64,000 nucleotides of DNA from an uncultured Acidobacteriota bacterium (GTDB taxonomy: Bacteria; Acidobacteriota; Vicinamibacteria; Vicinamibacterales; 2-12-FULL-66-21). The stretch spans positions 120,802 to 184,801 of the forward strand of contig CAWCQS010000011.1 in assembly GCA_963797715.1 (NCBI GenBank), given 5' to 3'. This document shows positions 1,062 to 6,230 of this stretch, one piece after another; position 1 is the first letter of the stretch; every line of letters begins with the position of its first letter. The translations under genes were made by a program, and so were the position numbers. The notes below the pieces were generated by a model. It ran no database searches. It had not been told where the DNA came from and worked only from the letters and a program-made list of their open reading frames with translations.

Positions 1062-3588
1062 TCATCTCACCGGTAAGATACCTGGCCCGTTGCTCGACGC
1101 GGAGCGCGAACGTTTGCCGAACGCCGTCGACCCACTCAGAAGAATGGCGATCGCCGAGGCGATGAAGACGGTCGAATACGTTCCGGCCGCGACGCCGACG
1201 AGCATCGTGAACGCAAATCCCCGCAGCGCCTCGCCGCCGAAGATGTAGAGTGCGACGACGGAGAGGAACGTCGTCCCGGCGGTGATCACCGTGCGCGACA
1301 GCGTCTGATTCACGCTCAGATTGACGACCGCCTCGAGTCCTTCACCTGGCACCCGCCTCGCATTCTCGCGCACGCGATCGAATATGACGAGGGTGTCGTT
1401 GACCGAGTAGCCGACGATCGTGAGCAGTGCGGCGATGACATTCAGCGACAGGTCGTAACCAGCCAGTGAGACGCAGGCAAGCGTCACGAGCACATCGTGC
1501 AACGTTGCCGCGACCGCACCGGCGGCAAACGCCGCACGGAAACGTATGCCGATATAGACCGCGATAGCGGCAAGGGATGTGCCGACGGCGTATATCCCGC
1601 GGCGCTGCAAGTCGCTGCCGACGGACGCACTGACGAGCTCGCGCTTTTCAACGGAGAACTCGGGAAGGCCTGAAGCCTGCAGCGCCTGCGTCACCCGTCG
1701 AACTGTGCCGTCCAAGCCCTCCGTAGCCAACGGCGCGACCGGTAGCCGAATGAGGAACTGGTGTTCGGCAGGGTCCCCGTACCGTTGTACGACAGCATCA
1801 CCAGGCAATCCCGAGACCGCCGTCCGCACGCGCTCCTCGGTCACTCCGTCTTGTGGAAATTCCACGACTACCATGGTGCCGCCGGAAAAGTCGATGCCCA
1901 GGCTGACGCCCTTGGTGAGCACCGTCGCCAGCCCAGCGCCGACGATGACGAGCGACAGGGCGAGCGCGTGCCAACGCCACCGCGTGAAGTCTGCGCGCGA
2001 GGTGGCGAATAGTTGTGAGCGTCCGACGCCAAGCGTGTGAGACGTGGGACGGCGTCGCAGCGCCACCTCGAACAACGTGCGCGAGACGAACACCGCGGTG
2101 AAGACGTTGGCCAGCAGGCCGATCGCCAGGGTTGTCGCAAAGCCGCGAATCGCCGTGGTGCCAAACTGAAAGAGGAAGGCGGCGGCAATCAACGAGGTGA
2201 CGTGCGTGTCGACAATAGTCAGCCAGACGCGCGTGAAAGCGGCTTTGACCGCGGACCGTGGCCCCTGGGCCGTGGCGAGCTCTTCTCTGAGCCGCTCGAA
2301 GATCAACACGTTCGAATCGACACCCATGCCGATGGTGAGAATCAAGCCAGCGATCCCCGGCAGCGTAAGAGTCACCGGGATGTAGGCCATGATGGCCAGG
2401 AGGATGAGCAGGTTCAAGACGACGGAGATCAACGCGTTGACGCCCGCCAACCGGTAGTACGAGAGCATGAACAGCAAAACGAGCCCGAGGCCGCCGAGCG
2501 ACGCCATCACGCCGTCGCGAACCGACGCGGCACCAAGACTCGCGCCGACCGTGCGCTCCTCGACATACTCGAGATCTGCCGGCAGCGCACCCGAGTTCAG
2601 GTTGATGACTTGCTCGATCATCTCTTCCCGGCTGACGCCAGCGATTTGCCCCTGATCGTTGATGCGGGACTGAATCGTCGCGACCGACATGACGCGGCTG
2701 TCGAGCACCGTCGCGAGCGGGCGATTGATGTTGCGCTCGGTGATGGCGCCAAACCGCCGTGCCGCGTCCGGCTTGAGCGTGAAGCCCACCGCCGGACGGT
2801 TGAATTCGTCGAGCGCGTGCCGCGCGCTTCGAAGGTCGGTGCCCGTAAGCGCCGGCGCCCGCTGGACCACGTAGAAGAGCGTGCTGCCCGGTTCGCCTCG
2901 GTCCGTCTTTCCCGGCAGAATCTCCAGCTCCGACGGCAGCGTGTTGCCATAGGCCAGGAGTGCGGCGTCGCTGCTTGCGAACGGCCCCTGATCGACCAGT
3001 GTCAGCCGGAGCTGCGCCGTTGACTTGATGATCTCTTTGGCACGATCGACATCTGAGACACCTGGCAGCTCCACGAGGATCTGGTCGGCAGCGGTATAGC
3101 GCGCGACCACCGACTCGGCGACGCCCAGTTCGTTGACCCGCCGGTCCACAGTGCGGAGGGCCTGCTCGACAACCTCATCGCGAAGCGCGCTCGCGACGCC
3201 CGCAGGCAGGCGGAACGTATAGGTACCAGTCGATGAGGTGCGTTCGATACGCCGGGGCAGACTCGTCTGCCGCGCGCCTGAGGCCTGACTCATCTTCGAC
3301 GCCGTGAACACGAAACTCCGTTGCACTGACGGCTTCTACCGCGGAGAACGAGACCTGCGCTTCGCTGAGCGTGGTGCGCAGCCGCTCTGCAGCGGCCTGC
3401 GTCTGAATCAACAGCGCATCGTTCGTCTTTACGCGTAAGACGAGCTGCACCCCGCCGTTCAGGTCGAGCCCCAGTTTGAGCGACGTCTGGAGTGGATAGA
3501 TCATCCAGAGCGCTAGTGCGATGACGCCGATGATGGCGAGCACACGATTGCGCGTGCTCGCGCCGACGAACGAGATTTTGGTACGCAT
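1062..3588 (-). CDS. secDF: Fused protein translocase subunit SecDF (apparent frameshift ~3250)
   Basis: LKLGLDLNGG in ORF 3175-3609; RRVNELGVAE, LTLPGIAGLILTIGMGVDSNVLIFER (SecD), LGIDFSGG, GYSVNDTLVIFDRVRE and TLSRT (SecF) in ORF 1062-3326; SD GGAGG upstream of ATG 3588. Confidence 0.95.
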
Positions 3589-3654
3589 GACTGATCCTCC
3601 TGCCCACACGAAGACACACCTGTAGTTGCGTGGCCGCGAAGAAGGGATCGCGGA

Positions 3655-3999
3655 TCAGATCAGGAGGGGCGTGTGTCGGAGGTAGACCGGTCCGGAACGA
3701 ACCGACGGGTGTTGCGGGCCAGACGGGCGTGCCGTCTCAACGGCGCGCGCCGAAAGAACGGCGGCGAGCGCCGCGTGCACCGGCGCGGACTTCCAAACGG
3801 ATTCAGAGACCGCCGCAATCGTGCGACGTTGTGCTTGCCAATGCTGATCAGAATCGCTGTGGCCGTGCGAGCTACCCGCGAGCAGACAAGGGCCGACCGC
3901 GGACATCGTGCTGATGTCGTCGGCCGGCGCGGGCGCCGTGCGAGCGGCGGCCCACAGAAGAGCGGACACGCCGATCGCGAGAAGGATCAAGCGACGCAC
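3655..3999 (-). CDS. 114-aa signal-peptide upstream ORF of secDF; candidate translation-arrest leader (monitoring substrate)
   Basis: GTG start; MRRLILLAIGVSALLWAAA signal-like N-terminus; low-complexity linker; C-terminus RSGPVYLRHTPLLI*; 66 nt upstream of secDF on the same strand. Confidence 0.7.
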   Translation of the reverse strand: MRRLILLAIGVSALLWAAARTAPAPADDISTMSAVGPCLLAGSSHGHSDSDQHWQAQRRTIAAVSESVWKSAPVHAALAAVLSARAVETARPSGPQHPSVRSGPVYLRHTPLLI

Positions 4000-4005
4000 T
4001 CGGCT

Positions 4006-4034
4006 ATTCTGACCTGTGACAGCGATACCGTCAA
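4006..4034 (-). promoter_or_regulatory. sigma70-type promoter for the uORF-secDF unit (probably leaderless transcript)
   Basis: Minus strand TTGACG-N17-CAGAAT; only 6 nt between the -10 box and the GTG at 3999. Confidence 0.65.
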
Positions 4035-4048
4035 ACCGCGGATGCAAC

Positions 4049-6126
4049 CTACGGCGTAACCACGAGTTGTGGGGCATTCGCAGTCTCTCGCGCGCTGAAC
4101 GTGACGTAGGGCAACGTGTCCGCGGCGCCCTTGATCGCAATGGCGACTGAGTTCGTTCCGGCCGCTCGCAAGGCCTGGACCTGCGATGTGATGTTGATTT
4201 CGTACCATTTCGCAGTCGTGCCCGAGACCGTCACCGTTGGCCACGTACCTGGTCCAACAGCGGGCCTGTTGTTCCACGTCACCGCCGTCTCGGTCCAGCC
4301 GTTCGTGGCGACCGGGACGATGGCCGCCATGACGCTCGACACCCGCGTGTCTGAGAGTTTTCCGAACAGCCGCAGGCGGACGGTCTGTCCGGTTTTAACG
4401 GCGCTGATATCCAGCCTCATGTACGATTCGCGCAGGTACGCGGCGTCCGTGCTGTATTTGACGACGAGCTCGGTGCCGTTGCCATAGTTGGTGTTCGCGT
4501 ACTGACCGCCTCGGACGTAGGCATCGGCAACGATGCGGCTCGCATCGCTCGGCGGAGCCGGAGCGCTTCCGGCCGTCGTAAAGGCCCAGATCGAGCCGGC
4601 GATCGATCGAGCCGGTGCGTTCAACGGCCCGCCGCCGTCGCCAATCATGGTCTTGCCACGAACCCTCCAGAGGTACGTCTTGCCAGGGGCGAGCCCTGCA
4701 GGGCACGCGGAGACGAACGGTGCCGGCGGCGCGCACGGATTGAACGATTCTTTGTTCGAGCTGACCCCCGCGGTGGCCGAGCCGGGCATGAAATTCTGCG
4801 CGATGAGCGGCGGTGGGTTGGTCGTGCCGAAGTAGATATCGTATTTGTGCGCCCACCAGCCGCCTTCCCACTTCAGCGTGACGGATGACGCGATGCCGAC
4901 GGCACCGTTTGCCGGCGAGGAGTTCACCGGTGTGTCCGGCAAGCCCGGCGTGTAGTTGACGTATTGCGCTGGAGTGACGGCCGTCCCGTCCGCTCGGGTG
5001 TTGTTCCACTTTCGCAGAAACTGTTCCTTGAGCCAGTCTACGAACCAGGTCTTTCTCGTGAAGTAGTTGTGCTCGCGCTGAATGTCGAGGATGATGACGT
5101 CCAGTTGGACGAACCGAAGATCCCCATGTCCACGCCGTGGAGCACGACCGACTTCTGGTGCATGTCCTGCTCGGTACCGCTGTCTTTCCATTTGATGGGG
5201 ATGCCCGCCAGGTACATCCGGTCGACGTTGTAGGAATGCCAGAAGTACGTCGTATTCCGATACTGCCGCCGGTCGGTGATGAGGCGAACCGGAACTCCCG
5301 CCTTGACGCGACGAATCATTTCGTCGGTAGGCTTGGCGGACGTGATGCGGAACATGACGACGTCGATTTGCTGCGTCTCGTTCTTCATCTGGGCGATGAG
5401 ACGATTCATGGTAGTCCTCGTCTGGCGGAAAGTTCAATTCTGGATCCAAGTCATTCTCCGAATACGTCGGATAGGTTCGCGTCAGCGGACCCGAGATGTT
5501 CGCGAGGTTGCGGTAGTGCGTGGTATTCGTCCAGAGGTCGTCGTACTTGTTCATGAAGGTCTGGACGACTTTTTCATCGGTGGTGAAATAGATCGCCTCG
5601 TCCACGTACTTGAAATATTCTCCGCCCGCTTCCGACGGCGAGTACGAGCCGTTGGCGAAGTTCGCTGCGCTGAAGTGGACGGCGCTCTGTCCTCTGTACA
5701 GCATCATCTTCCAGTGATTGATGCCGTTCGTAAACTTGTGGCGGATCGGTATCCCGGCATCGATGAACGACTGCCTGATGGTCACTGAAGCCGGGTAGAG
5801 CAGTCGGAGCGGAGATCGAGCAGGATCCTCACCGGGACGCCAGCCTTCCACCTCTTGATGATCTCGCTCGAGTAACGCCAATCGGTCATGAACCAGTACC
5901 AGACATCGATTCCGGCCTTCTCGTTCCGGATCATCTGGAGGATTGTGGCGCGGCAGTCCTCGTACGCGTTGTCGCAGAGCCTATCGGCCGGCGCCACCAC
6001 CTGGGCAGGGGATGGCGTTGCAGAGATCAGGATCAGAGTGAGCGCTGTCACCGCGGTAGTGCAGCTGAGCAGCCTTGAGGTGCAATATCCGAGCTGGGGG
6101 ATCACGTTCGGGGTCCTTTCGTGCAT
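4049..6126 (-). CDS. Secreted phospholipase D-like protein (two HxK domains) with FN3-like and C-terminal DNRLRE/CBM96-like domain (several frameshifts)
   Basis: Signal peptide; two repeats of IDV..F.....I..R.KAGVPVR; NHWKMMLY...FSAANF and MHQKSVVL...FGSSNWT; C-terminal ADAYVRGG..ANTNYG...RESYMRLD...WTETAVTWNNRP...FSARE...PQLVV. Confidence 0.8.
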
Positions 6127-6230
6127 GCGAGCGGGTCTCGCGCCGCGCAGCACTACCTTCCTGCATTAATAACGTTCGAAAGGCTCGAGCGAATGCGGCT
6201 GAACGAAAATTGTTCGTACAGTCGGTACTG

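Follow-up and report, generated by a model that had tools for sequence, protein, structure and literature searches.

Nature's main examples of ribosome control that is encoded in a peptide and sensitive to force are the monitoring substrates of the Sec export machinery, and every family added so far has brought a different way to disable the catalytic center. A screen for such arrest peptides, as set out in the main text of PMC10987492, looked for small unannotated upstream open reading frames (uORFs) of secA, secDF or yidC whose products have an N-terminal signal or transmembrane segment and a conserved C-terminus, with more than 30 residues between the two. According to the same main text, arrest at the termination stage is already established for peptides encoded before secDF (uDF_NAP-stop as well as uDF_DGMK-stop), and in the NSP-stop, NAP-stop and DGMK-stop cases the stop codon is needed and toeprinting puts it in the A site (PMC10987492). 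For VemP, ApdA and ApdP, the downstream secDF gene's Shine-Dalgarno (SD) sequence has been proposed to be hidden by structure in the mRNA and exposed by the stalled ribosome (PMC7897499, main text). Here we describe a uORF that precedes a fused secDF gene in 64,000 nucleotides (nt) of DNA from an uncultured Acidobacteriota bacterium of the order Vicinamibacterales (GenBank assembly GCA_963797715.1, contig CAWCQS010000011.1, positions 120,802 to 184,801 of the forward strand; this whole stretch is called the window below). Judging from sequence comparisons, the uORF product is probably a regulatory arrest peptide that monitors export and controls this secDF gene, secDF2, in Vicinamibacterales-type Acidobacteriota. 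Within the Sec-monitoring arrest peptides, a kind of regulator already known, it is a candidate with good support for a new family of sequences.

The uORF and its fused secDF neighbor

The locus comprises the following elements, numbered from the first letter of the window.

3655 to 3999, minus strand: uORF, with a GTG start at 3999-3997, 114 codons and a TGA stop at 3657-3655
3655 to 3684, minus strand: candidate arrest element, the codons for Y-L-R-H-T-P-L-L-I plus TGA, with conservation reaching the stop
3589 to 3654, minus strand: spacer of 66 nt, in which a hairpin (CCGCGA...UCGCGG) directly behind the stop is accompanied by the block ACAGGUGUGUCUUCGUGUGG and, at about 3596-3602, by the SD sequence CAGGAGG
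1062 to 3588, minus strand: fused secDF, a second SecDF paralog, assigned by Pfam and NCBIfam
4006 to 4034, minus strand: promoter-like site TTGACG-17 nt-CAGAAT, with 6 nt between the end of its -10 hexamer and the start codon of the uORF

An earlier reading of this DNA, made from its letters alone (the sequence-only reading), had placed a 114-codon frame 66 nt upstream of secDF on the same strand, and we recovered both its coordinates and its translation exactly (VRRLILLAIGVSALLWAAA...YLRHTPLLI-stop, with GTG read as M). The predicted product begins with an N-terminal signal or anchor (residues ~1-19); a variable spacer leads to an ES.WKS..VHA.LA block (residues 66-80), and a linker of 26 variable residues separates this block from YLRHTPLLI at the C-terminus. 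The N-terminus, in which M-R-R is followed by a hydrophobic run of 13-15 residues and then by AAA and R, is kept across homologs, and residues 2-20 are predicted to be helical; the twin Arg varies among homologs, some of which have HR or SR instead, and this argues against export by the twin-arginine (Tat) pathway. When we ran AlphaFold2 with a 50-sequence alignment, the product was predicted to be non-globular, with helices at residues 2-20 and 50-90, an unstructured tail and a predicted template-modeling score (pTM) of 0.21.

On comparative evidence, the uORF is a real conserved gene that belongs to no known family. A word-indexed search of 5.8 billion proteins gave 136 homologs at E ≤ 1 among 495 candidates; the 120 of these matches that were listed are nearly all 107-150 residues long, and the only two named by organism are both labelled Vicinamibacterales. 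In an exhaustive search of 1.84 billion representatives clustered at 50% identity, 89 matched the uORF profile at E ≤ 0.001. Neither Pfam nor NCBIfam contains a family that matches the product. We considered two other identities and rejected both. A hidden YajC is ruled out by the lack of a match to PF02699 in the Pfam scan (E ≤ 0.01), and the YajC of this genome is encoded on another contig (C13) beside secD and secF. As to a chance frame in a GC-rich genome, GC by codon position (0.71/0.60/0.73 in DNA of 65% GC) is compatible with coding, but an antisense frame looks similar, so that the third-position value of 0.73 is indecisive by itself; it is the 136 homologs, together with synteny with secDF in 43 of 44 loci, that put the uORF far beyond a chance ORF.

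The downstream gene starts at ATG 3588, preceded by an AGGAGG SD sequence, and its product matches SecD_1st, SecDF_P1_head and SecD_SecF_C (two stretches) in Pfam and a SecDF subfamily model in NCBIfam (E 4e-183). An extra T at about position 3247 splits its frame in this assembly into ORFs 3175-3609 and 1062-3326, whereas in a metagenome contig of 99% identity (L025) the gene is intact and both SecDF matches share one frame; the extra T is either an assembly indel or a strain-specific frameshift. Because yajC, secD (a 540-residue frame) and secF (a 326-residue frame) stand together on contig C13 of the same genome, we take the fused gene in the window to be an accessory second copy. The sequence-only reading had called it a stand-alone secDF, which is apt insofar as the gene is a second, fused paralog, but overlooks the housekeeping yajC-secD-secF set elsewhere in the genome.

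Association with the fused gene is tight. We gathered 45 loci, from 6 related genomes, 31 metagenome contigs and 8 genome contigs, of which one (L048) ends before the uORF does; in 43 of the 44 complete loci, SecD or SecDF sequence begins 58-319 nt past the uORF stop. A junction-spanning probe found an uninterrupted SecD-SecF junction in 11 of the 112 genomes of the GTDB family, a stop codon separating SecD and SecF in the remaining matches (G071, G076, G103 and G105 entered only as such unfused rows). A PLLI-stop uORF lies upstream of all 11 fused genes, 4 being recognized by profile and 7 by inspection; the inspected upstream regions each hold an ORF of 107-111 codons with a hydrophobic N-terminus and the end ...[F/Y]PLLI-TGA. 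In G127 a different frame holds the N-terminal part of the uORF, in G026 the uORF profile matches the C-terminal half only, and G077 has the uORF followed by SecDF though it falls below the threshold of the junction probe. With a broader profile, the uORF was found in at least 11 of 401 sampled genomes of the order, spread over four GTDB families; this is a lower bound, scoring having been limited to the 11 best candidates of each genome. Occurrence is patchy and follows that of the fused paralog: three genomes of the same genus (G001, G002 and G004) have unfused secD and secF only and no uORF, and G003 has fused secDF with the uORF plus separate secD and secF.

These counts bear on the idea that the product is a conserved hypothetical secreted protein whose position beside secDF is incidental and carries no regulatory link. 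Such an idea would suit the strong SD sequence that secDF has of its own; yet the synteny extends over 43 of 44 loci, over 11 of 11 fused secDF genes and over uORF products down to 14-17% identity, and conservation sets in abruptly at the promoter and continues through the spacer. We consider an incidental position very improbable.

Two genome bins carrying the uORF-secDF module (L058 and L061) are titled 'uncultured Acidimicrobiia bacterium', the module being otherwise found in Vicinamibacterales or Acidobacteriota records; these titles could reflect a labelling or binning issue, or transfer.

Conservation of the C-terminus up to the stop codon

The invariant columns of the 50-sequence alignment are W54, S67, W69, H75, A76, P98 and the whole of L107-I114 (L-R-H-T-P-L-L-I, 50/50), and LRHTPLLI is the C-terminal end of 119 of the 120 homologs listed among the 136 matches. 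PLLI ends 79 of the 89 representatives at 50% identity; the other 10 are truncated entries, matches in other frames or single-residue variants (PLRI, PLLN, PLLL and PLLS). When a divergent subfamily was included in a broad alignment of 42 sequences (14-67% identity to the query), P111, L112, L113 and I114 were the only invariant columns left, with R2 and W69 nearly invariant.

The sequence-only reading had offered two arrest signals for a monitoring substrate, a RAGP-like RSGP stretch and a motif at the very C-terminus. The first is ruled out by its variability, homologs having RSAP, GSAP, ASAP, SPAP and others at that place, and the broad alignment contains no RAPP- or RAGP-like motif (R/Q/H-A/G-P-P/G). 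The terminal motif held up and became sharper: in the close subfamily it reads LRHTPLLI-stop, and the invariant core common to the entire family is P-L-L-I-TGA. Gathering the ORFs before fused secDF genes and aligning their C-termini, a check suggested by that reading, supports its general idea. The monitoring-substrate proposal as a whole is borne out in part, by the terminal motif and the synteny and not by RSGP, and ribosome stalling, its release by export and induction of SecDF are predictions of it.

Nucleotide-level variation separates the constraint on the peptide from that on the RNA. Over 39 distinct loci, the Pro codon is CCC, CCT, CCG or CCA (4, 16, 14 and 5 loci, respectively), and four Thr codons, four Arg codons and two His codons are used with the residues unchanged; such synonymous changes under constant residues indicate that selection acts on the peptide. 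The Ile codon ATC, the stop TGA and the T after the stop are each the same in 39 of 39 distinct loci, whereas among 22 coding-like ORFs that served as the window background ATC accounts for 76% of Ile codons and TGA for 14 of 22 stops, with T as the next letter after TGA in 2 of 14 cases; the loci are related, and the counts are not independent trials. By eye, ATC-TGA-T is also present in 7 divergent loci, and TGA is the uORF stop in all 44 loci with a complete uORF end. Since conservation ends at the stop, the stop and its 3' neighbor do not vary, and universality is limited to the last four residues, the decisive event would take place at the stop or within the last one or two codons; provided that the product is an arrest peptide, we give arrest at termination proper about an even chance.

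The same codons allow us to weigh ordinary translational coupling, or an RNA-level leader that works without peptide arrest. Passage of the ribosome would open pairing between the last uORF codons (anti-SD) and the SD sequence of secDF, and the 3' end of the uORF and the spacer would be constrained as RNA or as a protein-binding site. Such a leader would explain why CTC, CTG, ATC, TGA and T are fixed at the nucleotide level, why a spacer block is kept in both subfamilies, and why CCUCCUG is complementary to CAGGAGG. It is contradicted by the Pro, Thr, Arg and His codons, whose third positions vary freely under fixed residues and thereby show that the peptide itself is selected. The His, the Thr or Ile and the upstream Leu are moreover conserved with no evident role in pairing, neither covariation nor an Rfam family was found for the leader, and coupling needs neither the signal peptide nor the length of 107-115 residues that is kept family-wide. 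We therefore rate a purely RNA-level explanation as quite unlikely.

Farther from the C-terminus, spacing is conserved as well. Measured from the ES.W[KR]S block, the last residue is 49 residues away in 40 of 40 loci that bear the motif and in 112 of 114 database proteins, and Trp occupies position -46 in 59 of 79 sequences of the broad set; the segment between signal and block is more variable, mostly 29-60 residues. Set beside the arrest-peptide screen described above, the locus has a small unannotated uORF directly before secDF, a conserved C-terminus and about 85 residues (20 to 106) between signal and motif. A hydrophobic N-terminus is present by sequence, which could be a Sec signal or an uncleaved anchor.

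Promoter, spacer and proposed mechanism

The site TTGACG-17-CAGAAT is the sole sigma-70-like site between 3400 and 4300 (1 found, against a mean of 0.2 in shuffles). In all 29 distinct homologous upstream regions the GTG is invariant and an xAxxxT hexamer ends 6 nt (28 regions) or 7 nt (1 region) before it, reading CAGAAT in 16, CACAAT in 7 and otherwise in 6; TTGAC stands 16-19 nt further upstream in 27 of the 29, L028 and L057 being without it. The divergent subfamily has the same layout (TTGAC-18-CATGAT/CATCAT-6-GTG CGG CGN), and sequence conservation starts at the -35 box. Many database entries have 'GQN' upstream of the start, which is the -10 box read as codons. No SD sequence precedes the GTG. 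A -10 box 6 nt from a start codon implies a leaderless transcript, and by this geometry the uORF mRNA is predicted to be leaderless or near-leaderless.

Parts of the locus are present in metatranscriptome runs from two studies, which we mapped on 2600-4500. One RNA-library contig (X1) is unbroken over 3330-3792, from the uORF across the spacer into secDF, and the uORF is covered in all four runs. Depth is 2-4, ends are not shown by the contigs, DNA carry-over is possible and uncovered bins are uninformative; the contigs give weak support to transcription of the uORF-secDF unit and are silent on its start site.

The P-L-L codons, CCC CUC CUG, contain CCUCCUG, which is complementary to the secDF SD sequence CAGGAGG. 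This anti-SD:SD helix is part of the minimum-free-energy fold of 3720-3570, where it encloses two small hairpins, although the z-score of the fold is only -0.81; over 29 loci with spacers of 58-68 nt, the helix is paired in 89% of cells. A modeled switch that sequesters the SD sequence is compatible with these data.

Taken together with the terminal motif, these features suggest the following course of events if the product is an arrest peptide. The dedicated promoter, to which the conserved -35/-10 position points, would fire onto the GTG and give a leaderless uORF-secDF2 transcript. The N-terminal signal or anchor of the nascent chain would, by its sequence, engage the Sec translocon. With HL[R/L]x[T/I]PLLI in the upper exit tunnel, the final step would be hindered, as invariance up to the stop and the fixed stop context suggest; this step would most likely be release at the invariant UGA, dependent on release factor 2 (RF2), or else one of the last one or two steps of elongation. 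The ribosome parked there would cover the P-L-L codons, with their anti-SD CCUCCUG, and favor initiation at the secDF2 SD sequence 55-60 nt downstream; the complementarity is seen in the sequence, and the switch itself is proposed. By analogy with described systems, active export would pull on the chain and cancel the arrest, and SecDF2 would be made mainly when export is slow. The Trp-containing helix, ~46 residues from the C-terminus, would stand at the tunnel exit and, more speculatively, may tune arrest or release.

A more specific version is possible but rather doubtful. PLLI-UGA would then be a new termination-stage arrest signal, in which an Ile-ending chain blocks RF2-dependent release at an obligatory UGA-U on a leaderless mRNA, the Trp helix would serve as a sensor of force or of the translocon at the tunnel exit, and the spacer block GUGUGUCUUCGUGU would be a second control element of secDF2.

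Several observations weigh against an export-monitoring arrest peptide or against parts of this scheme. Ile before a stop codon is not known to be a poor terminator, unlike the C-terminal Pro of the NSP-stop and NAP-stop peptides. The anti-SD:SD helix has 0 compensatory pairs over 29 loci, and shuffles equal or beat the observed pairing. The one helix returned by RNAalifold has 6 pairs, joins the His-Thr codons to a GG.GUGU block and likewise has 0 compensatory pairs, and a leader model with three helices did no better than shuffles. When we computed ensembles for 40 distinct leaders, the mean probability of an unpaired SD sequence was 0.15 in the free leader and 0.20 in each of two other settings, a ribosome placed on the stop and a shuffled uORF end, and in 17 of the 40 the SD sequence paired mainly with the last uORF codons; no specific release of the SD sequence appears in these calculations. 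The proposed mechanism does not account for GUGUGUCUUCGUGU, the spacer block that is conserved best. RNA contigs X1 and X2 reach upstream of the predicted promoter, to 4141 and 4057, so that a leaderless start stays a prediction; DNA carry-over is possible. Synteny has its exception in G008 (L002), where uORF, spacer and ~16 SecDF-like codons run into the gene of an exported protein, 726 residues long, that has Peptidase_S41 and beta-lactamase-fold domains; since the fusion is to another exported protein and an IS110 transposase adjoins, this locus is probably rearranged. Lastly, the conserved mid-block ES.WKS..HA.LA, with its nearly invariant W69, suggests that the mature protein may itself carry out a function.

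Such a function is most easily pictured as that of a small exported or membrane-anchored partner of SecDF2, an accessory subunit or periplasmic protein, loosely YajC-like, encoded as its operon partner and bearing PLLI-COOH as a recognition tag, for instance for a PDZ-type or tail-specific protease. The constant co-occurrence of the uORF with fused secDF would agree with this, as would the amphipathic-looking block around the nearly invariant Trp, which is predicted to be helical with a per-residue confidence (pLDDT) of ~70; the fixed distance from block to end could reflect structure, and the G008 cassette, placed before an S41 (tail-specific-type) peptidase fusion, might hint at a link to a C-terminal tag. 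No fold is predicted, however (pTM 0.21, tail unstructured), conservation across the family is almost nil beyond four residues and one Trp, and a tag leaves the fixed TGA, the following T, the ATC codon and the anti-SD in the last codons unexplained. Neither YajC (PF02699) nor any other Pfam family matches, the true YajC lies in the housekeeping operon, and the G008 locus, beside its IS110 transposase, looks rearranged. A partner of SecDF2 is thus unlikely, if less so than a purely RNA-level leader, and a role of this kind and a regulatory role are not exclusive of each other.

The G008 locus (L065; G008:C11:119000-127000) carries the fusion as ORF 3388-5568, followed by the IS110-family transposase. 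Its uORF has a degraded mid-block (KSFWKSMPAQA) and an intact LRHTPLLI-TGA, and the locus could act as a natural 'reporter fusion' of the leader.

The spacer has further features. Among the non-coding elements of the leader, the block ACAGGUGUGUCUUCGUGUGG, at 3603-3622 and in the homologous spacers L021-L072, is conserved best; it occurs in both uORF subfamilies. We found no covariation partner for this block and no constant frame relative to the secDF ATG. A GTG inside it was rejected as an alternative secDF start, and the block is read as non-coding, because the frame of this GTG relative to the ATG differs between loci. A helix between the His-Thr codons and GUGUG was likewise rejected as the reason for the block's conservation, given that the divergent subfamily keeps the block without those codons. 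The leader has no match in Rfam at E ≤ 1. Insertions of 20-80 nt, often GC-rich hairpins such as GCCCCGCC-UCCG-GCGGGGC, occur in 11 of 40 distinct leaders (L033, L039, L040, L043, L045, L050-L052, L058, L062 and L063), whose spacers measure 88-145 nt; their position is after the first hairpin and before the conserved GUGUCUUCG block. In L024 (G026:C5), a conserved ATGCGTA... opens a 15-codon mini-ORF (MRSDISLNCPEGRRS-stop) whose stop overlaps the ATG of the SecDF frame (ATGA), and in L022 the same ATG yields a long in-frame N-terminal extension of SecDF; the true secDF start may differ between lineages.

Upstream of the promoter, the neighboring gene (4049-6153, minus strand) encodes phospholipase D (PLD)-like domains and a C-terminal CBM96, spread over ORFs 4049-5881, 5038-5409 and 5782-6153; its split frames suggest further indels in this assembly.

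Relation to described arrest peptides

Full-text literature searches returned no paper linking Vicinamibacter* with arrest-peptide terms, and 'leaderless' had 0 occurrences in each of the eight top-ranked papers of such a search. 'Acidobacter' is absent from the main text of PMC10987492 and PMC7897499, and 'Acidobacteri' from the available part of the LudP preprint; in the available part of PMC12992588, 'Acidobacteri' appears once, in a list of phyla for motif statistics. A PLLI-type motif is not among the clusters named in the main text of PMC10987492 (RQH family, uA_LPPP, uC_KYxIW, NSP-stop, NAP-stop and DGMK-stop), the supplementary candidate tables of which may list the family.

If the uORF product is an arrest peptide, control by monitoring substrates would extend to Acidobacteriota, which are abundant and poorly studied soil bacteria. 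The PLLI-stop motif would be very short and sharply defined, with four invariant residues and a fixed UGA-U context, and would be independent of a terminal proline; the candidate peptide is also linked to a predicted leaderless promoter. The comparative data single out P111, L112, L113, I114, the stop codon, W69 and the spacer block as targets for mutagenesis. The fused SecDF would then be a paralog whose expression is conditional, and one may ask which soil condition makes the housekeeping SecD and SecF insufficient.

For an effect on release itself, TnaC is a candidate parallel: its nascent peptide inhibits RF2-dependent termination at UGA and has a conserved Trp at a fixed distance from the C-terminus. 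TnaC differs in having 24 residues and no signal peptide, in ending in Pro, in sensing free tryptophan and controlling Rho-dependent termination, and in the position of its Trp, 12 residues from the end as opposed to 46 here.

The layout of the locus resembles that of SecM-secA in Escherichia coli, as presented in the introduction of the LudP preprint, in having a putative signal peptide, then a spacer, a candidate arrest element at the C-terminus and, downstream, a Sec gene whose SD sequence could be masked. The SecM motif FxxxxWIxxxxGIRAGP is absent here, and the RSGP look-alike is not conserved.

With the stop-type peptides described in the main text of PMC10987492, the uORF shares its small size and place before secDF, a putative N-terminal localization signal and a motif that runs to the stop. 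It ends in P-L-L-I-stop, with Ile as the last residue in place of Pro or Lys, has no sequence similarity to those peptides and is a predicted arrest peptide. The phyla differ too, the stop-type peptides of that text belonging to Bacteroidota and Firmicutes_A/B and the present family to Acidobacteriota.

VemP, ApdA and ApdP, on the evidence of the main text of PMC7897499, arrest elongation at internal motifs (RAPP for ApdA and ApdP) a few codons before the stop, whereas conservation here ends at the stop, no RAPP-like motif is present and the RNA switch is without statistical support. In genetic arrangement they are nevertheless close counterparts: as in VemP-secDF2 of Vibrio and ApdA- and ApdP-secDF2 of Actinobacteria and Alphaproteobacteria, whose exported uORF products regulate the secondary paralog, a uORF stands before a secondary SecDF in a genome that also has the primary SecD and SecF (PMC7897499).

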